Source: Dipteris shenzhenensis (Eukaryota). Taken from it: a DNA stretch of 64,000 bases. The notes beneath the pieces were generated by a model, which saw nothing but the letters and a program-made list of their open reading frames with translations, searched no databases and was not told where the DNA came from. The stretch lies in assembly GCA_047967505.1 (NCBI GenBank), contig CM106538.1, one strand, 5' to 3'. How positions within the stretch are numbered: position 1 is the stretch's first letter; each line of letters starts with the position of its first letter. The position numbers and the translations under genes are program-made. Positions 4,000 to 58,900 of this stretch are shown piece after piece.

Positions 4000-6900
4000 T
4001 ACTACCATCGATAAAAGATCTATTGCTTTGGAGCGACATCATGGATTGAGGGCTTGCTTTGAATCATCCAGGACCCCATAATAATCAATAACCTCTCAAA
4101 TCTCCTCCACTTAGGCAAGAGATCAGTCCCCCAAAGGGTGCTGCATACATGATCATTGGCCACCATCAAAGTATCAAATAACTACCCCTTAAAGAGTTGC
4201 CTCTCTAGTTGATCCCGAGTTCCTTGAGCTCTTGTAAGCTATACCCAGGCTACATGGACCATTGTAAACAACCAACCTACAAAAGTTGCCGCTAGGTAAT
4301 TGTAGGTCAACATGATCTCCATCAATAGCCCATGGTATGTGAAACTATTTCGATATAATACTATCTAAGAGGTGTTAAATTTCATAAACCTATGCTTTCC
4401 AAGGTTGAATATCATGTCTTTCTCCCTATAAAACACCTCTAGGGCCTCAAAGTGTCTCTATAAGCCTATTATTAAAGAAGATATGAGGACAATCTCGTCC
4501 TCACCTAACAATCTTTGTACTATGAAGTTGGCAAGCAATGACTTGTCACCTTCAAGTCGGACAATGAAGGACATGATCTCATCAATGTAGAAGCCAAAAT
4601 GTGTTCGTGAAAGGGGGCATCCATGCTTCACTCTGATGGATAGCTGACCTATTGGTGAAACTCCACTTGTAATATATTGAGCTTGAAAGATTGTATGATG
4701 AATCTATAGGAATAAGGATATGCAAAATCCTCTCTAAAAAATATCATGCAAAATCAGGATCTAGAGAGAGAAATACTAAAATTGGAGAGAGAAAGACTAA
4801 AAGCTTGCACTTTTTGACATCCCTCCAAAAAGTGTAGAGACTGAGGTCTCCTACAAAAGAGGTCCCACCCTTGAGGTTCCTACAAAAAGTGTAGAGAGTC
4901 TTACCCAAAGAGGTCCCACCCTTGAGGTTCCTACCAAAAGTGTAGAGACTCTTACCCAAGAGGTCTCCAACAAAATAGGTCCCACCCTTGAGGTTCCTAT
5001 AAAAAGTGGAGAGACTCTTTTTTTTTTCAAATAAAAGTGGAGAGACTCTTACCCAAGAGGTCTCCTAGAAAAGAGGTCCCACCAAGAAGTCTCCTACAAA
5101 TTGTGTAGAGATCAACATGTATAAATCTCACTCAATGGAATGAAAAACCTTTGGTCTTGTATAGATGTTAATAAACTTTCTTTATTTCTTTCTTTCAGAT
5201 CGTGCTCTTAATACAAGAGAACACACCATCTAGGGTTCATACTCTCCCTTTGACAACTCATAAAGCCTGGGATCTACATCTCTTGAGATCTCTAAATCAT
5301 AAAAGATCGGAAAACACTATGTCATAAGCCTTTCAAAAGTCTACAAAACAAGCATAGACTTTTTGAGATCTTGATCTCACCTCCTCAATGATGGCCATAA
5401 AGTGGGGATGTGATCTAGAGTAGAGTGCTATCTTTGAAATCTAGCATATCCCAAATCTTATTGTATTTTGAGCCTTTGTGAAAGTGTTGTTCTCTCTCTA
5501 ATACAAACTTATAGATCTTGGCCAGTGTGTGGATATCTTCAAAACCTAGCCTACCCCAAAGCCTATTGTCCTTGAGCCTCTATGAAAGTGTTCTCTCTCT
5601 AGTACAAATCGATAGAGCCAATGTGTCGCCAATCATGAGAGTGCGATTGTTCCTAGTATCCATTGGGTCTCCTTCTTTGTTATCAATGGGAAAACCATGG
5701 CATACAGTGTGATTGAACATCAGTGCTAGGATTGGGGAGCCAAGATGTCCTCCCCATGTGTGAAGTGTTTTGTCTATACTCTATCATGGCCTTGGGCTCT
5801 TTTGAAGTAGAGTCTAGTGCAACCTGCACATTCCATGTGGTAAACAGGGTGTATGTGGTGGGCTTGGGTAAGGAAGACATATCAAGCTTGACCTAGAGAA
5901 TCATAGAGCAATGTGGCATATGTGTGCCAAATCATAGGGTTCATGTGATTGGGATGGGTGGCATTCCCTCTAATACAAGATCCCAGTAGGTTCCCTTCCT
6001 AAAAAGAGAGGATCATCTCATCAAGTTTGTGTGAGAGGAAAGTGGACTTCTTATGGTTGTAAGGTGGCATGAGATTCGATATGCCATAGATGGCATCAAA
6101 TGTCTTAAAGCTTGTTGGTCTAACCATGAACTCTAAGGCATCTTCCTTGCTAGAGGGCATGCTATGACTCAATCCATGAATGGGAATGATGTAGAGGCAA
6201 TATCTTGAACCACCAAAACTAGGGTGTCTGAGGCATGGGTGAGATCTACACCATCTCCAAGGGAGGTCGATGTCACAAGATAGTTGGCTCTCATAGACCG
6301 CATCAAGGGAAAAATCAAAGCATATTTCATAAGGAGCAAATGGAGCTAGATGCTCTAATGAGTACCCTTTTTAAACACTTTTTTGTGACCATTTTTTGTA
6401 TAAATTAGCCTTTTCAAAGATCATACACATTTCTAGGAACTAATATATATAAAAGGAGGTCTATGAAGACTTGAAAGAATTATACAACACGGAATTTCGA
6501 CAGGTTTTCTAGTTGGAATACTCATGAAAAGATGGTGACATTTTCCTTTTTCTTTTTTTTTGGATGGCGACTTTTTGATTGGTGACACCCAATCAGTATG
6601 CCCGATCTCCCAATTGGTGAAACCAGGATCCAATAATTTTTCAAGTTCTTCATAGACATGCGTGCCATACTTTGGATTTATCCTATAGGGTCCACATACC
6701 TTAGGTTTGGATCCTTCCCTAAGCAGTATGGTATGCACTGCAACTTCAAGGGAGATCCCTTTCATTTCCTTGTAGGACCAAGCCATGCAATCCCTGTATT
6801 ACATTAGCAATACTTTTAGTTCTTTCTCATCCTCTTGCATGAGTTATTTGCCGAGGTACACAAGCTTTTCTTCTTCTCCTTCTAAGGCAAGATCCAATTT

Positions 6901-30080: not shown

Positions 30081-32048
30081 TCTCTCTCTCTCTCTCACCA
30101 ACTCTCTTCGGACTATACATTGATGAGATTACATCTTTCATAGACCACCTAGAGGCAAGGGAGCACCACTAGCGGACTTGATGATACAGATTCTACTATA
30201 TGTGGATGACATAGTCCTCCTGTCATCTTTGGCAGAGGGACTACAGAGACATCTAGATGTCCTAGAGGTGTTCTACAAAGAGAGAGAGTTGATGGTTAAC
30301 CTTGGGAAGACCAAGGTCATGATCTTCAACACCTCCTACATAGTGCTTCACCGACATAGCTTTACATACCAGAGTCAACCAATGGAGATTGTCTAGTCCT
30401 ACACATACTTGGGTGCAGTTTTCACAGGGCCAATTTTCACGATGACCCATGTAGTCAGAACACGACTCACACGAGGGCATGGTGCCTTGGCCCCGACTAG
30501 AGGGACAGTGCTTACAGGCGCACTTTCAGGATCCACCGACGAAGTGTTGGCATTTCGATACTCTAGTGAGGCCGACCGCCATGTATGCGGCACCGTTTTG
30601 GGGGTGTGATCTTTCGGCAGCAAAGTGGAAGAGATTTGAGTGGTTGCAGAATCCAAGATGATTCGAAGTAAGCCCTCAGTCCCCCATCAGATAGTACAAG
30701 TAGAGTTTGCCATGACCCCTCTCTAGGTTGATGCCATCTTTCAAACAATGACTTTCCTCTATAGAGTTTGGGACCTACCTCGTGAGAGACTTCTGAGACT
30801 GGCACTAGAGTCCTCCATACGACTATTTGAGAGTGGGGCGGGTACATCATGGTTTGCATGCATCACTGCATGGTTCGCCAATGGGATTCAGATGGATCGG
30901 CTTCCCCCATTTCAGTATAGCATGGATGCACCACTCGAGTCAATCCCACGAGATGAGATTAACCGCATCATATGGTTAGATTTCCTCCAACTCCACACAT
31001 CTTGCATTTGGGGGGGGGGGACCAAGAGTTCCCCACCAAGACCCAACTCTATTATGACCAGTTTTTGAGAGTATCGGAAGACGGGCTCATCATTAGACCT
31101 CAGTATCTTGGGGATAGAGGAGTCTCACATGCACTGAAGATTGTTATCAGACAGATGCAAGTCTCGTTCCATCAGCTGAGGATCGAGATAGGGAGAGCTG
31201 CACGCATACCTGGAGAGCAACAGACTTGTAGGTTGTGCATGATGGGGACAGTTGAGACAGAGGAGCACTTTCTGTGTGTCTGCCTAGCCTACTATGAGAT
31301 TCGAGGGTGCTACCATTGCCTTTTTTAGGAGGGATATGGCTTTGGCCCACTCTCACGACTGATCCACTTCCAGGACTAGGTCTGCATTGGGCTCTACTTG
31401 ATGGAGATGCGACGACACAGGGAGATACTACTATGACGTATTAGAGAGCAGGAGGATGGGACGATCGCACCACAGGGTACTGAGGTAGACTAAGCGCAAA
31501 GACATGTCACAGATTTCTATGCATTTGACTCGGCCCAAGGGCACTCTTAGACAGAGGAGGAGGAGTTAGTTGACATGAGAGATATATGGATCAATGGAGG
31601 TAGCCGACGTAGCACTGCCAGACAAGGGACACAAAGACCATACACGGTGCGACAGACGACCAAAGTACACACGATTGAGGTTCGACCTATCTCAGCTCTC
31701 CTTAGGGGGGATCGACCGAGGCGAGGCATCACTCTTGACATAGCCCATCGGATCTAGAGATTGAGGAGACTGCATCTCATCAGAGAGCCATCATGGAGCC
31801 TAGATACGTAGGGCCAGTCCACGCACTTGGGACTCTAGCTGTGAGCACTTGATATCTTCATGTCACTCTCATTTTGCATTTTCACTTTGCTACTCTTTTT
31901 TGTACTAGTATAACATTTTAGTGCTTAGCAAGGGCCTTAGTGAGCCCTTTGTCCCAGCCCACAGTGGTTTGTATGAGCTACTTGATTCCGTACTTTGTCC
32001 CATAGGCCCGTGAGGCCTCCCACGGACATTAATATATATTTCCTTCTT

Positions 32049-32095
<47 letters not shown>

Positions 32096-32521
32096 CAGAC
32101 CTATTACAGCTTTCCTCAGAGGAGATCGCCCAAGGTGAGGGGTTACTCTGAACATAGCTCAGTGGGTTTAGCGATCGAGGAGATCACTCCCCCCTTCGCC
32201 ACGGTAGTATGAGACAACCCAACAGACACAGATGCGAGACTTTTTCACCCCTCATAGATGAGCCACCACAATGCCAAGTTTCAGATTCTGAGTTCCAACT
32301 CCAATCTCTCAACCTTCTTTAGATAGCACATGATATGTTTTGTACTTGATTTTGCTTGAGCTATTGAGCTTCTCTCTCTTTTCAGAATAGTACTCAGTAA
32401 GAGCCTTAGTGTGCCCTTTGCTCTAGCCTTTTGTGGCTTGTATGAGTTCTTTTCCCTTTTGGTGTGTTTTGTACTTTGTCCCATAGGCCCGCGAGGCCTT
32501 CTGCAGACGTTAATATATTTT

Positions 32522-32556
<35 letters not shown>

Positions 32557-33094
32557 CACACAGACACACACACACACACAGAGGGAACCCTAGTTAGGCT
32601 TGCATGAAGCTCAAATTACTCAAGGATGACACAAGACATGAATAACCCCGAAGATGGAATATATTCCTTTTCTAGTTTCTAAATTTAGTTTTGGTTTTGA
32701 CCCTAGACTCTTATGGGTTCTCATGAAGCTCAAATTACTCAAGGATGGCACATGGCATGTATAACCCCCAAGATGGAATATATTCCTTTTCTAGTTTCTA
32801 AATTTAGTACCCGACTCTTAGGGGTTCGCTAGACACTTCTAAGTCCCCTAACATGGGTGTTTTCCTTATGATATAGGTCAACTTAGTCTTACCTCCTTGG
32901 CTTTCCATAGATATTTATAAGTCAAACCCCACCCCTTGCCAGGTATGTGTGTGTTACTAGCTCAACTCCCAACATGAAATATTCTCCCTTTCTAGTCTCT
33001 AAATTAAGATTTGGTTTTGACCCTAGACTTGTAGGAGTTGCTAAACACCTCTAAATCTTCTACGCGGCCACGCACACACATATATACAGAGAAA

Positions 33095-39200: not shown

Positions 39201-42200
39201 TTGGGAGTACAAACCTATCCTTAACCCAGAGGGCTCTGCTGCATTGTTAGTGGCTTCACAAGTCCTGCTTTTCTATGTGGTTCTATGACATGAGTTTTGG
39301 TACTAGTGCTGTGGTTCTGTGGTTTTCTCTTACAAAGCCATGTCTACGAGGGGGTAGTCAAAAAATAGTGCTAAGATTAAGTTTAGAATGTGTGGCTGCT
39401 GCTCTTTTTAGGATGTTTTGATGCATTTTAAGAATCTTCTCTGTTTATAGTTGGAAGCTTCTGTCTAACTCAGTTTGATCGTTGCATGCTTGTTTCAGTG
39501 GGTGGTCTTCTAAATGCCACTTTTGGAAATGCAACGGAGATGATACTTTCTCTCTTTGGTCTCCAGAGTGGGTTGCTTCGTGTGGTACAACTCTCTCTTC
39601 TAGGTTCCATTCTCTCTAACATGTTGTTAGTGTTAGGTTGTGCCTTCTTCTTTGGTGGCCTGGCACATCCCAGGCATGATCAGTGTTTTAACCAGGCAAG
39701 ATATGAAATTCTTTTCTAACTGCAACAGTCTGTTTCAAATGTTCATTGTCTAGCTCTTCCAGACTTTAATTATCATTTGCTGAGGGATATTTACCCATCT
39801 TGGTGTTTGACTGCAGACAGCTGCTGCAATGAACTCTAGCTTGCTGTTGATGGCCGTAATGGGTCTTGTTTTCCCTACAGTCCTGCATTCTACTCACACA
39901 GAAATCCAGGACGGAGCGTCAGAAGTCTACCTTTCAAGATTCAGCAGTTGCATCATGCTTCTGGCATATGCCTCATTCGTTTTTTTCCAGTTGAGAAGCC
40001 AACAAAAGCTGTGCAAGCCTTCAGATAATGTAAGTAAAACGTTCCTGGACAGCTTTTGTTATGATATGCAGTCGACGAGGTGGTTTTCTAACATACATGC
40101 AACACTTTAAATAATCAAATTACTATTTTCTTTATGCATTCGATGAGGTGGTTTTGTAACATACATATCCACACAGGGCCAAAATGACCTATAGGACCAA
40201 ACAGAACTTGATACAACTAGATGTTCCCTCTCTGGGGGGTGTTAGTTATTAGCTGATGTCCCTGTGTTCTAGGAGCCATGCAAGATAAATGCCTAAAGCT
40301 GCATGTGAGGTGTTGACCTGGGCTAGGCGATGTTGCAGACAAGTACATTCTTGAAGCAGCTCTCTGAAATCAGCCCCTATGTGTGTGTACCTCGGGCATA
40401 CAAGTGCCAAGTGTTCTTGTATTTCAGGCATATGAAGATCACATAGGGTGCAAGTCCTTTTAGTTACTTCAATGCACATCCATCCCCCACATTCTATCCT
40501 CAGAGTATGTCTAGTCCTTATAAGGATGATTGCCTGTCTTGCACATTGTGACATTGGTGTCCTGATGTGCATTTGGGCTTCGGGTTTGCATGTGGGGTAT
40601 GAACTCCAATACTCAGGATTTATGTGCTCAATGTAGTATTCAAATTTGGATCTATGTTTTGATGTCCTCCACTTGTTATGAAGACCCTCAAAATAATGGA
40701 ATCCAATCTCACCCGAATCCATGCCCCTTGCTGGCATGTTCAAGTGGTTTGCCACACCCCATTTCAAGAACCATTTCCTCATGTCTTGCACCCAGCTTGA
40801 TGATAAGAATGTACTCTTGTGTCTTTTAGTGTTTGGACCCCACTTCCCATGTTGTCAGTGGTAGGTAGTGTGATGGCATATTCCTAATCTTTGTGAAGTA
40901 TTTGAACACCCGTTGCATTGCTGTTATTTCCAATGGCCTTCTTCCAGTTTCTTTGAGTAAGAGTGTAGCACATGAGATTGATTTGCTATACATAGTGCGA
41001 GGCTGGAATGTCATTGCTGAGAGCCCCTAAGAGCTTCACTGTACTAATTAATTGAGACTGACTGTTCTATCCCTCCGTTGCATTTCGTCTTGCATTCCAG
41101 CCTCTTGTCTTATGAGGTCTATCAGTTTTGGAACTAAGTTTAAAGAGACCAAGCTCTCAGAACAAGTATCCTTAGGCTGGCCACAATACTTTGGGAAGTA
41201 CGGACTCAAAATTAGGTTTCCACACTTAGGTAGACCCATGACTGCAGTAGCTGTATGAAAACTCTCTTGAAAGCGACTTTTATTTATAAAGTTTTATGCA
41301 GGGACAAACATGATATATGCTGGATATGCTGGGTCTTTTTGTGTCCACAGCACTACCTAGACAAAGTGGCTGCAACACTAGCTAGACAAGGTCTTGGGAT
41401 GTTGCAGGAATTTCTGCAGCTGCCTTACAAAAACCCTTGTAACAGTGGCATGATGCCATGCAGCTTTGTAGAATTAGCAATTCTAGAGATAGAATCTTTG
41501 TGGTGAGACATCCAAGTTTAGAACCAGATACCATGTGAACAAGTAGAACTAGAATTGAAGAGATTCAAGTCCACTCATAAGAAAGTAGATAACGATAGGC
41601 TCTGAAATTACGAGGTCAAATCTCTCCTGTATTTTATGTTAGAATCTTCTTGACAAGTGTGAGCTTTTAGCCTCTATTTTTATGTTAGATTCTTCTTGAA
41701 AAGTGTGAGATTTTTTAGCCTTTTAGCCTCTATTTGCTTAGGGAGAGTTGTGGTTATAGATCCAAAGGTCATAGCAACCTCTGGACTAGAAAAGAGAGAT
41801 ACTATTCGACTTGAACAGAGGATAGTGCTAGTGTGGACCACACACTTTTGCAAAGAAAATGAATCATGACTCTAGGTATCAAGGAGGGCCTCACAACTAT
41901 CTTGAGCGGCTATTATGTCTACCTGCATATTTTGGCTCTCATTTAATCTGATCTTTTACAAATCCTTAGAGAAATGTGGGATCGGTTCCCTGAACTTGCA
42001 ATGATAAAGATCAAGAAAGCATCGAGCACACCAAATGTTCTAGGTTGTCAAACTGCCTATGCTGGGAGCAGAGACTTTAAAAAGGGAGGCTGATCCTCTT
42101 GGAAAGAAGTGAGGATGCTGCGATGAATATACCTAGCAGGAATCTCAGCTTGCATCTCACATGAAAGAAAAGTGGCCGATCCCTCCCAGCAAACGAAAAG

Positions 42201-45200
42201 ATGGCAACAAAAAGTGTTGGAAGAGGTTTATAGTCGAATCAAATGAACTGAGTAGCAACCCAAAGGGATTTTTTTCAGCTTCATTTGTCATGGAGTAATG
42301 AGCCTACAGAGAAGGGAGGTGCCAATAAGATGACAAGTGTGAGAAAGTAGCCAGCTGCAAGGCTGCATGCTGGTGATTATGATCATGACAAAGTTTTGGG
42401 ATTTCAAAGAAAGGTTTGGCTTAGGGCTCTCTCGAATTCAGTCTTTTTCTGGCTCTTTAGTTCTTCAATTTGTTATGCTCAGTAACATATTTTCATCCTC
42501 TTATTTTGGTATCATGAGATTCGAGGCTCTCTTGGGCAGTTTGCTTTAGGTCCCTTTTTCTCTTAGGTTTTAGTGTGCAAATAATAAAGTTCACCTTTTA
42601 ATTTGGTATGTTGGATTTTGAGCATGCTAATTCCTGCTAATGATTTGGGATCTCATTCCTCCTCTTGACCAAGAAAATTTCCTCTGTTGCAGGAACATCA
42701 AGAAAGTGCAAAACAATCCAAGGAAGAGCAAGAAGAAATCCTACTTGGGCCATTGGGTTGTTTCTTTTGGCTAGGAATCATAACTTTATTAATATCACTT
42801 TTGTCAGGAAATCTTATAAATGCAATAGAGGTATTATACTCCAAACTTTGAGAACCAAAAGCTGTATTTCTTGTGCAGTTAGTTCATAGACCTGCAAATT
42901 TTGCATATTGCCTAGTTGGTTATGGACTTTCTATATATGTTTTTTGGTCTCTGAACGACAATAACAAATATTTTCTCTAAAACCTACTAGTGGCAACATA
43001 GATATATGAACCACTGACTGTTTGAATGCTACTCAATGATCTGTACATCCTGGATGATATAAGTTCTAGGAAATACCCATCTGTGCTTTTATGGACTACA
43101 TCTTTGTTTCTGTAAGAGTGAAAACAAATGTTGCAGGAAAGGGTGGTCTTAGATTGTAGAATCTGTTGGTGCTCAAAGAGAAAGTGCTTGGATTTTTGTA
43201 TAGGGTGCATTAATATGGAGGAAGATTTAGGTGGAGCAATTGTTAATGACTGGGAACTGGTACTTATTATGTAGGGTGCCTCTAAAACATGGAAAATTCC
43301 AATGGAATTCATCAGTGTCATCATAATACCTATTGTTGGCAATGCTGCTGAGCATACCAGTGCCATTTTGTTTGCAATGAAGGACAAACTGGTGCGTAAT
43401 AGCTATGAGGATTTTAGAATGTCTTTTTTGTTTCATAAATTTACTGGATGAGTATGGATTGTTCTTTTTCTCTTTAGGATTCTCTGAGTGCATCATCAGT
43501 TTATTCTTAGATTTTCTGAAGGATGTATGGGTAAATTTATCAGGATCTCTCTGTGAGTGTCGCCATTGGATCATCAACACAGATATCAATGTTTGTGGTA
43601 TGAATCACAATTTCATATAGTATTCTGTTAATGATTTGGCTTGTTGATATTGGCTGCATAGACTCAAACAAATGCTTGCAGTATTGAAACGTTGAGTTAC
43701 ATGCCTAAAAATGTAGTTCTTGTAATATGTATATGGTATCTAGGTTAGCCTTGGGAGCTTATGGGATAGTTTTACTTGCTGTAGATGTTCATCTCTAACT
43801 TTAGTACTCTAAGTTAGATCACTTGTCAATGTCTTCTAAAACTGCAGCTAGGTGTTAGTTGGAAAATATAGTATAATACTTTACCATGAGGACCAAGTCC
43901 TCCAACCTAGGATAAAATAAAAGATACAAGTGGATGAATAGACCAAAAAGGTGGATAATCGTCTTGGGCAAGAATATGTCTCCTATGCCAACAAAAATCC
44001 AAAATGCCTTGGAATGTGAGCGAGAATGGAATGAAACTCTTATGCCATTTGGGTTATGTACCGCATTTGAGTTTCTCTGATTTTGAATTTTGTGAGCACT
44101 GTCTCTACAGGAAGTAGACTAAATCAGCCCATAAAAGAAAGGGAAAGAAAGAGTTTGAAAAGCTTGATTTGGTGCATTCAGACATATGTGGTCCCACGCC
44201 TGCACGGTCATTAGGCGGGGCTGAATACTATGTGACATTAATTGATGATGCAACTAGGAAAGTGTGGGCTTATGCTACAGCTCGGAAGAGTGATGTGTTC
44301 CAGGTATTTCAGAATTGGCTGGCCTTGGTTGAGAATCAGTCAGGTAGAATGCTTAAATGCCTACGGACTGACAATGGTGGAGAGTATCTCTCTCATGACT
44401 TTCAGCATTTTTGTGATACACGTGGGATTAAGAGGGAGCTCACATCCCCTCGTACTCTAAAGCAAAATCCAGTTGCAGAAAAGATGAATCGTACGAGGGG
44501 TGAAAAGGTGGGAAGGGGAGGCTTGATTAAGCAAGTTTTTAAAACAACCCTATTTCACTCGTCTCCTCTCCCTGCTCTGCCTTCTTACCCCCCCCCCCCC
44601 CCCCTGCCCCCCCTCTCTCTCTCTCTCTCCTACGTGCTGCCTTCACTCTCTCTCTCCCAACCTCTCTCTATCCCTCCTTCCCCTCACCAGCTGCCTACAC
44701 CCTCTCTCCTCCCTACTCACACACACACTTCTACGTCCTCTCTCTCTCTCTCTCTCTCTAAGCCCTCCCCGCCTCCTCTCAGCCCTTCCCGCACCCTCTC
44801 CCATCTTTTCTCAGCCCTTACCCTCTTCCTCTCTCTCCCTTACAGCCTTTCCTTCTCTTGTAGCCTGTTCATTTGCTGTTGCGCTCTATAGTCCGTGGCT
44901 TGTAGCCCATACCCCGTAGCCACCAGAAGCCGCAGCGCCGCCACAAAAGAAGTCAGCAGCCGCCGCCAATAGCAGCGCCCCCACAACAACAACTAGCAGT
45001 CATCGCCACCAGAAGCCACCATCCGCCTCAACAAGGGACACGCAACCCCAAGGTTTGGGCTGAGCCCCAAAACCCAACTGTGGGGGTTAGTTACAGCAAG
45101 GGGTGCCTAAGTATATGCAGGCCACTATGGATGTGGATGCCAAGACACCTGGGGCCTTCCCCAAGATCAAGACACTTGTCTCGACCCGACAAAAGTACTA

Positions 45201-46088
45201 TATTCCACCATTGCATCTCTCCCCTCACCTTCCCCCTATGTGTTTGCAAAGACACCTTCCCCATATGCAAAGAACTATCTACATCAGAAGAGAATGGTAA
45301 GCATGATAGACCCACAAGAGCATATTTATTACTTACAACAGGAAATCCGTGAGCTCAAGCTCAGACTTGCAGCTTTAGAGAGGAAAACAGATGCATACAC
45401 CACAGATGGTGACTAAATTCTAGGACCTGGTTACAAATCACCTCCAATCAGTAAAACATGAAATTATAGCAACACTGGATACTAAAGTTAACACATCGGA
45501 TGTGTATGAAGAAGTACAAGAATAGGAAAGAAGGTGGCTAATACATGACTTGTACGCATAGGGGGGCTACCAGAGGACTGGTTTGAAGGAACTCAAAAGG
45601 AAAAACTGGAAAATATCATGGAAAGAACCCCACAATTAGAATGGGCTATTGAAGATGTAATAGTTGTCTTACAGGAGGGGACACAAGCCAAAGTATGCTT
45701 CCAGAAAAAGAAGAAAAGAAGCAAGATTCTTAAGCAAACCAATAAGCTAAAAGGCACTAAAATATGGATAGCGCAGGAGCTCACCCCAACTCAGCTCAAA
45801 ATGAAGGCCACTAAATTGGCTAAAGTGAAGGATGCTCGAAAGGAAGGAAAATGGGCTGTTTACAAAGATGGAAAAGCACTTATAAGAGACTTCAAATCCA
45901 AACCTAAAGACTCTCAGTCTTAAACTAATGTAATGCAGACCGGTTATCGTTGGTAGTAGACAGTTAACCTATAATAATTTTGTGAGTGCTATATACCCCA
46001 AGAGACTCTCAGTCTATAATTGATGTTTTTGTGTTCACCTTTTTTGTGTGTGTTTGTCCAATAGGCCTGTGGGGCCTCCCGAGGATGT

Positions 46089-46130
<42 letters not shown>

Positions 46131-46900
46131 GACTTGAGGAGCACTTTGTTTGCAGATGCCCTTTATATTATGAGATCCGTGGCAGATTTCACTGTTTATT
46201 TGGGCACGGATTTGGACCTCTCTCTCGGATTATGGAGTATGAGGATCAGTATTGCTTAGCGTTGTTCATCAGGGAGATCACGAGATACAGAGAGATTTCT
46301 CAGAGAGCACTGTCGCATCCCTGCCAGAGACCTAGTTATTCATGAGGAGCAGGACGAGGCGCAGGACCATGAGCACAGAGATAGCCCATCTTGCCAGAGA
46401 GCACCGATGGTTCCACCCCGAGGATGTATATATGACATGATCCGGCAGCACCGCAGGATGATCTTACACAGAGGCCGTACCCGTCGCTTTATTTCTAGAC
46501 GACGGAGGATGATGGCAGATTTTCGGAGGAGATTGGTCCATGGAGACTTGGCACCGCCAGCAGCCCACTTGACACTTGCCCAGATCTTCACACTCATGGC
46601 AGGAGGCATGGTCGATGGCCATGACTTCCATCATTTCTTTGGATCACAGACCCCTTAGGGAAGACGATGTTCCTCATATTTCATATTTTACATTTTGTAT
46701 CTAGGCATTTTTGGTACTCTATTTCATTTCATTTTGTATCTAGGATTTTTGTAGCCATTTTTGGCATCTTAGCTGTATTACGATGAGGCCACCTAGTTGG
46801 CGCATCGTTGATGATGTATTTTCCTTTCGGATGATTTTGTGTCCCATAGGCCATGTATGGCCTTCCGTGGACCTTTAATAAAATTTCTTTCTTTCTTTCT

Positions 46901-46935
<35 letters not shown>

Positions 46936-49900
46936 ACTTGCCCGTGCGCTCCTGCTCCTGTCTCCGCTCTGTTGCTCCGCCCGCCCATTGCTTCACCCCC
47001 AACTTGCTCTCCTCGCAGCTTCTATGCCCTTTGCAGCAGCTCACCCGCATGTTGCAGCTCCGCCCGCGCAGCTCCTTCACCTGGCTGCCTCTCCGCCCTT
47101 GCACTCTGCTGCTACACTGCCCGCACGCTCTAGCTCCGCCCTGCCTCCACCATAGCCTTGCTGCCCCCGCCACAGCCTCTGCCGTAGCCTTGTTGCCCTG
47201 CCCTTTCGTCCGCCTACTGCTCCTTCCCATCAGCTTATCACTCCACGCTCCACGCAGCCCCCCCTGTCACGAGGGCAAAGTTTCCCTTTTCTCTTTTTTC
47301 ACTTTTTTTCTCTTTTCCTTTGCTCCCCCCCCAACCTCTAGCCTCTAACCTACCCCCCCCCCCCCCCTCCTAGCCTCTCCCTTAGCCTCTTGCCTCAAAC
47401 TCCCCCCCCCTCCTAGCCTCTTTTCTCCTCATTGATCTTCAGCCCCAGGCCTGGGTGTGCCTCCCGCCGTGGGTGGGGGCTCTCGCTCCTGCTCCTGCAC
47501 TAAGACCTGCACCACCAAGGTTACAGAGATCAGTCCAAAGAAAATGGGAAACACTCAACTAAGCTCCCGCGAACTCCCTCCCTCCTCCGTTCCCCGTCTA
47601 CCCCCCCCTCGCGTGCTGTGTGGCCCTCCCTCTACCTCCGTCAGCTGCTGCCGCGCAGCCAGCCGCCCCCCTCTCCTCTTCCTCCGCCCGTCGTTCCTCC
47701 CCTCCCCCCTCGCTACGCTCTGCTCACCTCACCCCGCCTCGCTCTGCTCCGCTCCGCTCACCTCACCTCACCCCGCCTCACTCCGCTCCGCTCACCTCAC
47801 CCCCTCTCCACCCGTCGCCCCCCCCCCCCTCGCTTCACTCCTCCGCCCTGCTTCCCCCCTCGCCGCATTCAGCCCCCCCCACCCGTCCCACCCCCTCGTG
47901 TGGCGCTACCAACCCCCTCGCCCCCTCCTGCCCCTCCCCGCTGCTGCGCCACACTGCCCCCCCTTTTTCCCTCCCCTCCTTACCTCTCCTCCCCACCCCC
48001 TCGTGTGGCGCTGCCACACCCCCCCTTCCCCTTCCTCTCACCCCCCTGCGCTGCGCTGCCCCCCCCCCCCCTCTCTTTCTCCTCCTCTTCCCCCGCCAAC
48101 CCTTTCGTCACCACCTTCTTCCCCCCCCGTTTTCCCATACCTCTCCATCCCCCCTTCCCCCCGCCTCCACATTAATCCCATCCCCGTTCCTTCCGTTTCC
48201 TTTCCCTTCCCCCGCCTCGGAGAGTTCGCAGTTAGTCAAGCGATATGGCGGCTACGTGCCCGGAACCGGTGGCCCAGACGGCCCCCCCCCCTCCATCAGC
48301 CTATCGCGTTACATTGATAGAGCACCAGGTCTCCTTGGTGAAGCAGGCCGCCACGGATTTCTCCCAAACATCTGTTTATGGGAGAGTCATTGGCTACTCC
48401 CCTTCACGAGCATACATCAGGGACTGGTTACAGTCCACCCTCTACCTCGAGGACAGTCACATTGAGGAGGTTGCACTCATGGGACGTGGCATCTTCTGGC
48501 TTAAGCTCTCCTCAGCACAGGCTGCGAGCGACATGGTCAGGCGATCCCCTACTTTTGTGGGTGGGAAGATCATCCTCATGGTCCCATGGTACAAGGGTTT
48601 CAGTGTAGCGGACTTCGATGCCCGCTTTCGCATTCCTCGCCATCCAGTTACCCTTATCTTCCTAGGTCTCGCAATCGAGCTTCGCCCGATCATCAAGGAC
48701 CTGGGGACGCACTTTGGTTGGCCTATGCAGGACACCTACGTTGATGCGGCGGCAGCCCAAGGGGTGCCACATGTCAAAGTGGCAGTCCTTGATCCACAGA
48801 GCATCCCCTCGGAGTTCGAGATAGAGACAGACACAGGTGTGGTGACGCAGCGCATTCTGGTCACTGGTCGCCCAAACCAGTGTCTGAGATGCCATGGCTT
48901 CGGGCACCAGGCGCGCTCATGTCCTCGCTTCACGGGTACAGAACCTCAGAAGACCCCCGTTCAGGCAACTCAGGATACTCCGCACCAGTCAGCGACATCC
49001 CCTCCCGAAGGGGAAGGCTGGACGGAGGTCAAACGAAAACGGAAGGGAAACAAAGCAGGCCCCAAAAAACCTGCCCATCTACAGCAAGAGCCCCCTCCGA
49101 TGGTCCCTACTCATCAGCAGCCCGGTAAGGGGAAGGAGAAGGGAAAGGAGAAGGTCAGCCAACCTCCCCCTTATCCTTCACCCCGCCCTCCTCCCCCTCC
49201 CCCCCCCTCCTCGATTCTCCGACCCCCACCCCCTTCAGGATTTCCCTCCACACTGGTGGTTTCCACTCCACTCTCTTCCTCGAGCACGATCCAGAGGGAA
49301 TCCCCCCCTCCACCTGTGCCACCTGCAGCCCCGAAGCCAACACAAACCTCACCCTCGCCTATCCCTCTGGGCCCGGCGGAGGGGAGAGGCCCTTCCCCGC
49401 AGGTGGCTAGCACCCCTCCCTCTGGTTCAGACTCCTCATCTTCGTCCCCATGCCCAAGGGCTGCTCCTAGAGCTCTTCCATTGGAGTTTTATCGAGCAGG
49501 TCCTTGGGATTACTTGGATGCAGCGGGTATTGGCTCCTTCCCCACATGCCTAGACATCAGCATCTTCTTCCTCCGTAAGGGGGGGGAGGGTAAGGTGTCC
49601 ATCCTTGCCCCACACGATGGTCCTAGCTATTCCTTCACTATCTCCAGTGAAGGGAATGAGCAATGGACGAATGAAAATGTTTGGGAGACGATACGAGACC
49701 AGTCCCAGGAGCAGGTGCAGGACTGGATTGGTAGCAGAGCAGCGGAGCTTCTTCAGCAACAGTGGCAGGAGGGTGATGTTCGTCTGTGTTGGTGCCACAT
49801 CGCCAAACGTTTCCGACTCCTGGTCATTATTAGACCACCGCTGGAGTGGGCCTACGCGGAAGGGCTTCGCCCATGGAGGACATCAGAGGTAGCGGGCTTC

Positions 49901-52900: not shown

Positions 52901-55900
52901 TCTCAGTGTGTGTACTCCCCAGAGAGGGGGTGTTTGGCAGCCTTCTATCCGATGGATCTTCACTTCAGCTCCTTTGACTCAGCCCCGTTCCCCCTTCCTC
53001 CGTAGCCTCATCTCGGTCTGGAGGAAGTTGCGACACAGCCTTTCCCAGGTTCCCCCTAGCTGCCGAGAGGAGATAGACAGACAGCCCCTGATCTGGAGCA
53101 GCCAAGTGACAGATGTTACAGGTCGTCAGCTTGGAGAGAGATCCCATATCCCTTGGGCGCTTTGGGCGCGTGGGCCCGCGTACTCGCTCCGGGTTTGGAG
53201 GGACGTCTACAGTCAGCTGAGCCTAGGCGAGCTGACAGCAGCAGTAGGTACGGCACGTGGGATCCAGGCTCGGCGAGCGGAGATTGATGCTGCCATTCCT
53301 GCAGGTTGGAGGATTCCCATAGTCACCGGACAGCTCTTCCCGGGAGATGAGAGGTGGCTAGGACAGTTCACTCCACGAGGCATTCCTTTGGTGGTTGCAG
53401 GCCTCTTCTCGGACTCCTCGGTACACTTCTTCTCCGTCACTGATGACAGTCGCCTACAGAGCAGAGAGGCCATGATCGACCCCCCAGCTTCCCTGGCAAC
53501 GCCTTCGCATCGTAGGGCTGCAAGGGAAGACGTGGCATATAGACCCCCTGATTATGTAGGACCAGGATTGGAGACTCTGGATATGGGAGGGCCGTTCCTT
53601 GACAGAGGTGGAGTGGGACCCAGGAGAGTGGCGTTGGCCACCATCGGAGACCTCAGAGAACCCTACCCCCTTCTTTTCTTACAGTACACGCACGGGTCGG
53701 CGTGCTCTTGGGGCTCTCTAGCGAGGGCTACCCACACAGGCACATAGGTGGTATGCCCAGGGGATATCCTTGGTCTTTCTTCGCACTTTCTGGAAGACTC
53801 TTTGGGCTAGCTGGCGTCCGAGGAAGATCTCCTACTTCCTTTGGATGGTGGCACACAAGGGGCTTCCAATTGGCAGCTGGCTGAGACAGATGGGACAGGA
53901 GGGGCATTGCCAGATGTGTTTTCAGGAGGAGTCGTCCCTGAAACATTGCCTTTGGAGCTGCTCGCATGCGCAGACGGTTTGGAAGGGAATCATGGGGATC
54001 TTAGTGAGGGCTACACCCGAGCTAGGACCGATCACTTGGGGAGCCGTTTGCTAGTGCAGCACTGAGCCGGGACATCACTTGGCCTATGAGTTCTCTAGAT
54101 AGGATCCCGTCTTTTCCATCACGCAGGCCACCTGGGCATACATGGACAGCTTCCCTTGGCATCTGACAGAGACAGATGCAGGAGCGATGCCTCGGCACCC
54201 AGTTTGGGAGATCATAGGGAGCATTGCAGGCTGGCATATCTGGACTTCCAGATGCGCGCAGACTGTAGGAGCTCAGATTACTTCTACTATCCAGACCCTA
54301 GCAGACATCTGGAGCACGATCATTCACACGCTCAAGGGTCAGTGGGATCAGATTCAGGGAGAGTCCTGGGCAGGGAAGGAAAAGGGACGACGTTTCCTTC
54401 GCGACTGGGACCACCGGGAGTTGTTCTTCGAGCACTCCACTCAGAGTCTTCAGTGGCATTACACCCCTCCACCGTGGTTGTTTGTCCACTCTCCGATGAT
54501 TATGCCCTAAGAGGCTTGTATTTAGCATTTTGACTCCTCGGGCTGAATCCGTTTTGTGATTACAGCCCGCTGGCCTTTAAGCCTTCTTGTACTCTCGCTT
54601 TCAAGTAATATAATTAGCACTTTTTTTTGCGCAAAAAAAAAAAAGAAAATGGGAAAAGGTGAAAAAGATATGGATAAAGCCAAGAAAGACGACAACAAAA
54701 AAAAGCAACAAACACAACTGAAACTTGAGCATGTGAACACGCGCTACCGAAGTGGACAGAAAAGCAAAGGCGGGGTCTACCTCAGTCTCAGTCCCTGCTT
54801 CAGTTTCAGTTTCAGTATCAGTCTCAGCCCCTGCTACATCCTCATCTTCAGCTTCAGCTTTAGCCTTAGTTTCAGCTTCAGTTCCAGCTGCAACCTCTAC
54901 ATTCCCAGCTACAGAATCTGCCAGCGACATACCCATACCCATGACATCGGTTGCTTCACTCTCCCTTGGGATAGGGGGGTTGTCACTGATCTCATCTCCC
55001 GCTACAGCTTTCTCACCGATTATGACACCTACTTCGGAGGGGTCATAACTGCTCCGCGTTACGCCTCGACCTTTCTCTCCCCGCTGCCTCTCAGTTAGCC
55101 TATGCTCCCACACCCTGTTGGGATCGCCTCATCCATGCCACTATCATCTCCATACCGTACCTAGCTCACCCAGTCACCAGCTAGCCTCCAGGCTCACCCT
55201 TACTTTCATGCCACAATCCTTCCAGTTTCAGCTAGGACATGGACGAGCTGACCCATCAAAGGCTTGGGCGAACTTGCTAATGGAGGTACACAGTATCCGA
55301 GAGCGCGAGATGGAGCTGACACGCTTTGCACAGGCAGGTCCACTTCACCCAAGAGCAGGTGCGTCTCATACAGAAGTAGGCTCGTGCTATTCGAGACCAG
55401 GCTGATCTCATTCAGGGACTCAGATAGGACATCTCGCAGCTCCGACAAGAGGTCACCGCTATACGCACAGTCCCAGGGAGCACTCCAATTGCTGAGGCAT
55501 AGATTGCGAGCATGCAATTTGCAATTGACGAGACGTCCAGGTGGGTCGATGTGGCCAAACTGGAACCTGCAAGGGTAACCGTTTCGGCAACCCTCATGGA
55601 GCAGCAGCAGAGCTAGTAAGGCTCTCAACATCAAAGTATGTGGGATCCCGCGCACTGCGATGTAGACTGATAGTACGGCTTTACAGAAGACAGCCATAGT
55701 AGCCTCAACAGGTTTGACTTCAGCCTCAACACCAATGTCACCAACTCTAGGATGACAACATCATCAGTGGAGATAGCATCAGTGCCAGCCACCACTTCCA
55801 CCATCTTAGCAGGTCCGACTTCAGCCTCACCAACAATGTCACCATCCTTGGGGATGACAGCACCATCAGGATTAGTGATGGCTTTCACATGCGCCCAAAA

Positions 55901-58900
55901 ATGATGCATCCCTCTCACAGGATGGAGGTTCAGCTTGCATTTCATGGATCAGCAGTAAGAAGCAAGCCAAAGTCTCTCTTTCATCCAGTAAAGTAGAATA
56001 CAGGACAGAAAATGCAGCCACTATGGAATGCATGTGGTTAATAAATTTAATGCATGATTTGCATCATTGACAGGATGGTGTGCCCCCTCTACTTACTGTG
56101 ACAGCCAGAGTTGCATTGCCATTGCAAACAAATCCGGTCTTTCATGCTCACATGAAGCACATTGAAAACCATCATCACTACATTCGGGTTTGCATATTTA
56201 TACACCTTTGAGAAGGATTGGGGATGAGAGATCTACAAACAATGTCGAGGGGTGTTGTAAAATAACATTGTTTTTATTTCTTTGTATTCCCATAGGTGGC
56301 CATATCCTTATGATGAATTTGTGTAGCTAGTCCGAGTTTAATTAGTCTAGTCTATTTATTTCTCAGATATGGATTTCATATATAACCCAGGAGTGTCTTT
56401 GGATTTCATATATAACTCAGGAGTTGTTATTTCATTTGTAACTATTCAGTGGAGCTTTCTAGTTAACTCAAACTCTCTTGTGGAATACACTCTCATGTCT
56501 TGCTCTCCACTTTGTGACTCTCCAACAGTACCTTGGAGAATTATGCACATTTTTGCAAGGCTTGGCCTGCATGCACTTCTAACAATCTCACAAATTGAGC
56601 AGTTTGCTGGTTGTTGGTCTCTCACCATCCTATTAGTGTCTATTCTCGGGCTACCTTAGGTAGTGAGCTAGAACCCTGAGACAGAGACTGCAAATAGCCT
56701 GTCTTTTCCTTATTTTGGTGCCGTAGTGAACAGCTGATCATTGTATCGTTTTGTGGAAAACGTTAACGTAACTGCTTTTTTATTTAAAGGGGAAAGGAAA
56801 GAAGAAACCTAATTAAGGGATGATGCCTCTACAAGTGGGTAGACCCTCTTACATACACATTAGATTACAGGATAACTTTTATATTCTTTGCATCACAGTA
56901 CACTGAGATGATATGTCAAGTAGCATCTAAATGTACAAACTTTATCACGTATAGTTTTGGCCTTTGGATCATGTAGACCCTATCAAGGACACATAAAATC
57001 ATTTCTCCTTACATTTTCACCTACAACTGCTCTTACCTAAAACTTTGTTTGGCATTTTATGCAAGTTCTTGAGTACACAGATACAACTTAATGTTTATAG
57101 ATGTTGTTATTCAATATGTTTAAACAGCTTACAATATATTGAACAATATGTTTGAACAGCTTACAATATATTGAACAGTATGTTTGAACAGCTTAGGATA
57201 TTTAAATAAAAGCCTTCTTCAAAGTGATATTAACTCTTATAGCTTTTAAGGATCTTTCATTCGTTGTGTTTTGCAGATCCCGTTTTGTGTTGTGTATGGA
57301 TGGGTTACAAGGCATGCAATGGACTTAAACTTTCATATATTTGAAACTTCAATGCTCTTTATCACAGTCATTGTAGTGGCATTCATGCTGCAGGTCAGTC
57401 AAAGCCACAGAGTGTAAGCATGAAATGAGAGACGAGTTATCCAAATATCTGCATCTTGTCTGATGCACGTAGTCTTGGATTTTGGGATTGTCTGATTTTT
57501 GAGTGGGGGGACCTGAATACCGAACCTTGGGTGATGGGGTCCTGGTCAGCATTGGCGGGCATCTCCATCATTTCATTAAGAACCTTTGGGTGGTGGGGGT
57601 CAGCAGCCAGAAATGGCTGGCAGCCTTACTATTTTAGATAAGGAAATAGAGTTATACTGACATTGTTTTGCATGCAGGATGGGAGATCAAATTACTTCAA
57701 GGGGCTGATGTTGATTTTGTGCTATTTTATAGTAGCAGCAAGTTTCTATGTCCATGTTGATAATCCGGATAGAGGTATATACTGCCACTCTGTCACCGAT
57801 ATCAATATGCTTTGGTGGAAATCCTTCGCACAAAGGATTTGTTGCACTGCTGCTGATATTATTTCAAAAAGAAGAGAGACTCTAAAAAATGCAATTAAAA
57901 TTTTCTGGAACTTGATATTATGAGGATTAATCTTACGTGTGTAATGTTCCTGAGACTTTTGAAGCAATTTTCCATCCATGGCACAGTGCTCATGCAGGGG
58001 GCATTCCACTGGCCAGCCCATAACCATTTCCCAATGATAGATTAGGGCTTTTTCTGGTTGATGCTTTACAGAGGAGTGGATAGATCTTTGTGAAGATAAG
58101 ATGGTACTTTGATCTGCTAATATTATGGCTGGTATTTAGCATCCCCTTGTATTGAAGGGTGGGTTGAACACTTGCAGAAGTATTACTGTCGGCTTCAAAC
58201 CAATTGTACAAGGAGGTGCTTTGCATGCCTGCACCCTAAGACAATGTCTTTCTGCTCGATTCTTCCTTCTTGACTTATTATCCTAGGACAATTTTTTTCC
58301 TGCTTGACTTATTAGGCTAGGACAATGTGTAGCTCATTTAGTGTACGGAAAGACAACAGAATAGACTTTGACAAGACTCTGACAAAAGAGAGACAAAACT
58401 TCATGGTTGAAGCAAATCCCACCACGTGTAGGAAAGATTATATTCAAGGCAGCTTGTAGTTTTTGCATGCTTCCGGCACTCCCTTCACAGCATTTAATTT
58501 CTTCCCCTATACTTGAAAATCCTGCCATTGATAATCAACCCATCCATCCATGGCTATCATGTCTTCGTGGACCTTTGAAAGAAGAAAATGATGGCTAGAT
58601 CTGCAAGAGTCGATAGATAGTGAATTAGAGACCATCAAACAAGCCCTTAGCTGGAGGGGGGGAATCATAGAGCCTAAATAAAGACTCCCATCCCTAGATG
58701 CAGAAGATTGTGGAAGTTCTCACGATGGGCAGAATGCAAAACATCGATAACTCACCTTTGCGTTTCAACACAGCACAACCTGCAAGTAGCACATGCTTCA
58801 CCATCCTCGTTAATGGCTCCATCACCCAATACTCTCGTATATGAAGTAAAGTGCTTTGGAAGAGACATCCATGACTAGAAGAAGCCAGTGGCACCAAGAG

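Follow-up and report, generated by a model that had tools for sequence, protein, structure and literature searches.

Here we describe element A, a long interspersed element (LINE) of the fern Dipteris shenzhenensis that encodes only an RNA-binding protein resembling the L1 open reading frame 1 protein (ORF1p) and ends in a helper-type 3′ hairpin. It lies on the plus strand at 44555-46127 of a 64,000-nucleotide stretch of contig CM106538.1 (assembly GCA_047967505.1), hereafter the window. From sequence comparison we propose, with a probability of roughly 0.65, that A is a decayed member of an old lineage of non-autonomous LINEs with ORF1 only, copied in trans by the ORF2 protein (ORF2p) of a helper. 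An earlier note on this DNA had suggested either a parasite and its helper or a system split between ORF1 and ORF2 elements. The former reading gains support from an intact helper (locus L007), a second ORF1-only element (L001), separate ORF1 clades and purifying selection, whereas the latter finds no support, since ORF1 stands immediately upstream of an endonuclease in 29 of 31 related loci.

Results

Structure of element A

Element A, whose start is uncertain (44555-44629) and lies near a (C)n(CT)8 tract, consists of a C/T-rich 5′ region, ORF1 (45111-45923, plus strand), an untranslated region (UTR), the hairpin tail (46056-46092, plus strand, recognized by pattern match, folding and a tail model) and a (CT)n repeat. 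Like all element copies in the window it is decayed: ORF1 is present in its full extent, but stop codons and frameshifts interrupt its first half, and only 45549-45923 is open. This ORF1 matches the intact protein P0002 at 61%, its C-terminus coinciding with the end of that protein; it is predicted to comprise a coiled coil, an RNA recognition motif (RRM) and a C-terminal domain (CTD) and is homologous to ORF1 of the intact LINEs at loci L007 and L011. Only 132 nt of UTR separate the ORF1 stop from the tail, and none of the 122 ORF2 proteins compared matches A. For A, therefore, the earlier proposal of an element passing straight from ORF1 to the tail holds.

A 13-bp repeat (45908-45920 and 46003-46015) copies the last ORF1 codons of A within its UTR, and its second copy continues like the C-terminus of P0001. 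Copia-type fragments occur at 44118-44495 and 60728-63108, an integrase piece ending just before A. A relic of another ORF1 C-terminus, sharing 15 of 22 residues with A, is found at 19325-19399 (plus strand); the tail model scores a tail neither after this relic nor at 56287.

A shared two-stem hairpin tail

The tail pattern AGGCC-loop-GGCCT occurs six times exactly in the window where 0.19 are expected (0 of 100 shuffles do as well). Together with a degenerate tail at 40158-40202 (minus strand; 43.6 bits in the tail model), these matches confirm the seven sites listed earlier. Folding indicates a two-stem hairpin of about 45 nt followed by a microsatellite: the AGGCC/GGCCT stem previously described is present, but the hairpin is longer than was claimed, with an outer (lower) stem GTCY/RGAY enclosing this inner (upper) one. 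The tail is common to the ORF1-only elements and an autonomous partner, since A and, in shortened form, L001 share it with L007.

A covariance model built from 14 tails and run over the window recovers the seven known tails and an eighth, collapsed one at 5149-5198 (plus strand; model match 5149-5175, 20.1 bits, E 0.01) whose upper stem is missing; the remaining 7 of its 15 matches have E above 1. Because the model was built from these very tails, its scores on them are not independent. The eighth tail closes an insertion of about 0.5 kb within another reverse transcriptase (RT) fragment (5941-4035, minus strand). Both it and the tail of L001 (995-1023) have lost the upper stem while keeping the lower stem and the GAYGTTAATA end, and may represent either a short variant or decay.

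Pairing holds in 88% of the cells of the model alignment, a level that 0 of 500 shuffles reach, and 3 of 500 attain its covariation score of 0.213. Automatic stem parsing misregistered the lower arm in 4 of the 14 tails, which were read by eye; in register, the tails have C-G or U-A as their fourth lower pair, and as their third upper pair G-C in the window, G-U in L007 and A-U in the L011 type. Such a pairing pattern fits a conserved structure, in a sample that is small and related. The hairpin is more stable than shuffled sequence (z ≤ -2) in 7 of 11 tails, the values above this limit including C2 (-1.0), D (-1.9) and L001 (+0.35).

Helpers and a second ORF1-only element

Relatives were sought in a single metagenome scan, in which 223 candidates yielded 31 loci, and among 1.84 billion proteins, which yielded 115 relatives. 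The 31 loci comprise 29 with an endonuclease directly after ORF1 (9 L007-like and 20 L011-like, many of them near-duplicates), one that passes from ORF1 to the tail (L001) and one bacterial chance match. L007 is intact: its ORF1 of 359 codons and ORF2 of 1235 codons, encoding endonuclease and RT, are followed by the same tail as in the window. ORF2 starts right at the ORF1 stop in both L007 and L011 and encodes an APE endonuclease and RT, a combination common to many LINE clades and not diagnostic. In L011-type elements the tail is followed by (CAT)n. L018 is an internally deleted L007-type copy in which ORF1 and part of the endonuclease are joined to the tail.

The best match in the scan, L001, has an open ORF1 of 240 codons, a 200-nt UTR, a shortened tail and (CTTT)n, with no ORF2. 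P0026, a near copy, reads on into the UTR of L001 when compared by eye. The L007-type ORF2 family is also present in Adiantum at 55-66% identity, and ferns therefore hold both components. Among named organisms, the element proteins have their closest relatives in ferns (Adiantum, Psilotum); named relatives of the helper come from Adiantum, Taxus and Klebsormidium, most ORF2 relatives being unnamed. None of 46 viral contig candidates was confirmed as a relative; for prokaryote genomes the figure was 1 of 94, a weak match to a bacterium that, like locus L031, we put down to chance.

Three side observations concern these relatives. The 5′ ends of L005, L007, L009 and L010 show (CT)n and then telomere-like TTTAGGG, and L007 starts directly behind the tail of another element. 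Distant ORF2 relatives such as P0160 and P0166 have a PHD finger within the C-terminal Cys/His region. P0041, an ORF1 relative, bears an N-terminal SAND domain (E 3e-16) and is possibly a case of domain capture or a domesticated gene.

A separate, selected lineage of short ORF1 proteins

Of 125 ORF1 rows, the 70 spanning the RRM-CTD region were used to build a tree. In it, A and L001 stand far apart (about 2 changes per site) within one 21-row clade with support 100/99, composed mostly of proteins of 200-270 residues and including two Adiantum capillus-veneris gene models (KAI5066643.1 and KAI5065692.1). This short-ORF1 clade holds none of the 14 ORF2-linked ORF1s, all of which fall outside it. 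An approximately unbiased test rejects a grouping of A with the L007-type ORF1s (p 0.00019), the group having been defined post hoc from the tree. Among the metagenome loci and relatives compared, no short-clade ORF1 adjoins or is fused to an endonuclease. Two further counts were set aside as evidence: the absence of fusions in the clade (0 of 21, with 8 fused proteins outside), as all eight lie in one clade and are not independent, and the 15 short-clade proteins on contigs of 510-2003 nt, as 4 of 6 longer ORF1s also sit on contigs below 1.5 kb.

The predicted fold of the short ORF1 is of the L1 ORF1p type, coiled coil-RRM-CTD: for a family model of P0003 with 18 sequences (pLDDT 85), the top nine structural matches are human L1 ORF1p. 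No Pfam family matches ORF1 at cut-off, and in the Atlas a Baculo_FP_2nd lead with a 12% share was set aside, alongside unnamed clusters.

Copy number and selection were assessed in a sample (X1) that contains a small share of sequence words and acts like a low-depth set in which repeats assemble. On the 461 nt at 45640-46100 there are 43 X1 contigs, with a depth of 5-10 at most listed sites of the end of A's ORF1, so the short-ORF1 family is multi-copy. Among these contigs 21 of 33 differences are synonymous where 8.9 are expected (0 of 20000 simulations; the 33 varying differences come from 40 listed of 43 in all), and between A and L001 differences at codon positions 1, 2 and 3 number 13, 10 and 34 over 58 codons. 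By these sequence comparisons the short ORF1 is under purifying selection, the point of one of the checks proposed earlier.

Element B

The second ORF1-to-tail element of the earlier note fares differently. Element B (36980-38164, minus strand) comprises C/T-rich 25-nt repeats, a decayed short-type ORF1, a tail at 37032-36997 and (ATCT)n, with no match to ORF2 proteins. Its ORF1 (about 37800-37070) retains the coil and the first half of the RRM, the C-terminal domain being deleted; the homology tails off at about 37150-37070, within the RRM. Because B breaks off inside ORF1 the junction is private, and the sequence indicates that B lost the end of ORF1 through an internal deletion of its own. 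As A and B share no junction, B says little on architecture. The best matches of its ORF1 are P0001, P0055, P0013 and P0003; B itself is not in the tree, and of these four P0001 and P0003 fall in the short clade, the other two being too short.

The extent once given to B, 36790-38400, is revised at both ends. Its 5′ end probably lies near 38164, behind a (CT)n tract; the 533-bp stretch at 38184-38716 resembles a repeat in its own right, possibly a long terminal repeat, with TGTT...AACA ends, no clean target duplication and deep X1 contig coverage. An RT-thumb relic (38971-38825, minus strand) follows it. At the other end, 36790-36916 (minus strand) is a tandem duplicate of B's tail and flank, 93% identical over 127 nt to 36909-37030. 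The tail at 36917-36882 lies within this 119-bp tandem duplication and is not a separate insertion, which leaves six independent tails in the region instead of seven.

ORF2 fragments and nesting at (CT)n tracts

Four of the tails end ORF2-coding fragments, as had been noted: C, C2, D and E are 5′-truncated copies of ORF2 that belong to at least three families, C and E being L007-like with differing C-termini and D L011-like. Element C (30096-32092, plus strand) starts right behind a (C)n(CT)n tract and consists of a decayed ORF2, a UTR, a tail at 31997-32033 and (CT)n; its ORF2 retains the end of the RT (RVT_1, E 7e-09), the thumb and a C-terminal Cys/His motif, and is 39-51% identical to that of L007. 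C2 (32093-32551, plus strand; tail 32478-32514) is a short 3′ remnant of an element akin to C, nested at the (CT)n of C, with a UTR resembling that of C (0 of 200 shuffles as good). Element D (40158-40854, minus strand) is the C-terminus of an ORF2 from a second, L011-like subgroup, matching L011 ORF2 at 28% and P0155 at 50%, and bears the degenerate tail. Element E (46128-46935, plus strand; tail 46841-46879), nested at the (CT)n of A, is an ORF2 C-terminus with 57-67% identity to P0136. Its truncation is confirmed by an X1 contig that matches 46136-46874 with 8 differences and runs on 667 nt further upstream.

Nested in turn at the tail of E is element F, whose C/T-rich 5′ region (46936-47536, plus strand) is interrupted by a nearly full-length plant L1 (47537-54656, plus strand) with a weak DUF4283 ORF1, endonuclease, RT, zf-RVT, poly(A) and a 15-bp target duplication at 47537 and 54642. 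A candidate continuation of F at 54657-55700 (plus strand) contains a decayed ORF1 of the long, helper-like type, weakly matched (HMM score 5.5, E 0.17) and judged by eye from motif resemblance. A plant L1 identity for the tailed elements was rejected: DUF4283/zinc-knuckle ORF1, zf-RVT and poly(A) belong to this neighbour, and RT identity between the two is 28%. A further decayed L1-like ORF1 with a zinc-knuckle-like motif, seen by eye in the reading-frame list, lies at 33166-34600 (plus strand).

C, C2, E, F and B all start directly after (CT)n, in a window with a total of only 17 such tracts, as do all four full-length L007-type loci. At intact 5′ ends the tract could belong to the element; C, C2 and E are truncated and start after (CT)n, so there it cannot. 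We infer that the elements insert at (CT)n and that the tail repeat acts as primer, which explains the head-to-tail nests C-C2 and A-E-F.

The tailed cluster probably sits inside long introns of a CAX-type gene, because a candidate exon at 43275-43391 resembles the Na/Ca exchanger family in a match below cut-off (E 4e-4).

Discussion

In the mechanism that we propose, the C/T-rich 5′ region would drive a transcript of 1.2-1.6 kb, and A-type ORF1p would package its own RNA, probably in cis; this would account for the continued selection on the ORF1 gene. The two-stem 3′ hairpin would then recruit helper ORF2p, whose endonuclease would nick a (CT)n/(AG)n tract; the (CU)n end of the RNA could pair with the freed strand and so prime reverse transcription. 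Each insertion would add a new (CT)n tract, giving rise to nests such as C-C2 and A-E-F. It is possible, although we hold it only tentatively, that ferns at large harbour a very old lineage of protein-coding LINE parasites, long separated from its parent and with a compact ORF1p of its own, whose members use several helper RT families through one hairpin conserved among divergent subgroups of plant LINEs and, with these helpers, seed and extend (CT)n nests in giant introns.

Several results weigh against an ORF1-only lineage. Complete ORF1-to-tail elements number only two, A and L001, whose UTRs fail to align (12 of 200 shuffles do equally well). One-off internal deletions do occur in the group, as B and L018 illustrate. 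DNA context is known for only 2 of the 21 short-clade members, and the X1 contigs used for selection may carry ORF2. No X1 contig joins A's ORF1 to a tail, the X1 gap at 45944-46055 itself carrying no evidential weight; two contigs pass the ORF1 stop and then differ from A (by eye, over the 30 letters listed), one closing all three frames and one staying open. The hairpin of A is no stabler than shuffles (z -0.36), and that of L001 (z +0.35, 17.6 bits, E 0.18) has lost its 3′ arm as well as its loop. Strict covariation is modest: 2 double-change pairs, with 1.2 in shuffles (168 of 500). Finally, a weak relic is all that is seen of this genome's helper ORF1.

Much of this would suit A, B and L001 being independent internal deletions of an unsampled autonomous fern family with a short ORF1, itself the source of the selection: B and L018 are such deletions, A and L001 are without a common UTR, no X1 contig covers the UTR of A, and most short-clade members have no known context. 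We nevertheless regard this account, the main rival, as clearly less likely. A and L001 keep ORF1 exactly to its stop, where ORF2 begins in L007 and L011, with no remnant of the endonuclease; at about 2 changes per site apart, they would require two separate clean deletions. P0026 moreover has the downstream sequence of L001, and no short-clade ORF1 stands beside or is fused to an endonuclease among those examined.

A split system, with ORF1 and ORF2 on separate and mutually dependent elements, could appeal to the lack of an adjoining ORF1 in every ORF2 fragment of the window, but these pieces lack ORF1 because all are 5′-truncated within ORF2. ORF1 abuts the endonuclease in nearly all related loci, L007 is complete with the same tail, and its ORF2 family is present in Adiantum at the identity given above. 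The L007 helper carries its own ORF1, and the split system is therefore refuted for the L007 and L011 families; elsewhere we give it hardly any credence. That the short ORF1 might be a domesticated host gene, comparable to mammalian L1TD1, and A a retrocopy that gained a tail would accord with purifying selection and with the two annotated Adiantum capillus-veneris genes in the short clade. It is highly improbable given the many divergent copies in one sample (X1), the 5′ repeats, tail and (CT)n surroundings that mark A, B and L001 as elements, and the very deep divergence inside the clade.

The ORF1-only lineage that we favour has parallels outside plants. HAL1 (from L1), HeT-A (from Jockey) and Ag-Sponge (from CR1) are described as bipartite non-autonomous LINEs with ORF1 and, like A, have a 5′ part with ORF1, no ORF2 and a retained 3′ end (PMC5786205, PMC5753468). 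The head-to-tail arrays also recall HeT-A (PMC13534243), here at (CT)n tracts instead of telomeres. HAL1 encodes the same L1 ORF1p fold type as predicted for A's family. Unlike all three, A has a land plant as host and shares only about 45 nt of 3′ end with its helpers; its parent RT is not that of plant L1 (28% identity), and neither a Jockey nor a CR1 origin is established. TRE5-A.2 of Dictyostelium is a close deletion derivative of its helper and targets tRNA genes. It is without ORF2 and has been shown experimentally to be moved in trans by TRE5-A.1 ORF2p (PMC5633606). Unlike in that pair, ORF1 here forms a separate deep clade.

The present system differs from LINE/SINE (short interspersed element) pairs in that its passenger is protein-coding and has no small-RNA head. 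Such pairs (L2, CR1 and RTE with ‘stringent’ recognition) share a 3′ stem-loop; as here, hairpin and microsatellite are common to both partners, with differing UTRs upstream. The helpers combine endonuclease, RT and a C-terminal Cys/His motif, and by this resemblance their RT may be of the RTE-X type. RTE-X is reported in Ceratopteris with 8733 copies, 0.14% (PMC6890710), and also in Marchantia and Chlorella; the cited fern, liverwort and alga passages describe no structure, tail or ORF1-only partner.

As to novelty, no example of an ORF1-only LINE in land plants was found in the parts of the literature searched, a search that lay outside Repbase, Dfam, subscription journals and preprint supplements; the tailed family may already be catalogued. 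Within that scope the first suggestion of novelty stands for land plants; it falls for the kind of element, which is known from flies, mammals and slime moulds and of which A's family is probably a new, independently derived member.

If true, the ‘half-LINE’ strategy would have arisen independently in plants, and from a further LINE clade, which suggests that it is of general use. A parasite in which selection maintains ORF1 alone would offer a natural test of the role of ORF1p in cis, and a 45-nt tail held across divergent families would be a minimal RT-recognition signal that can be directly assayed. ‘Hypothetical’ fern genes, such as the two Adiantum gene models, would be explained as element proteins, and these LINEs would be linked to the clusters of (CT)n microsatellites.

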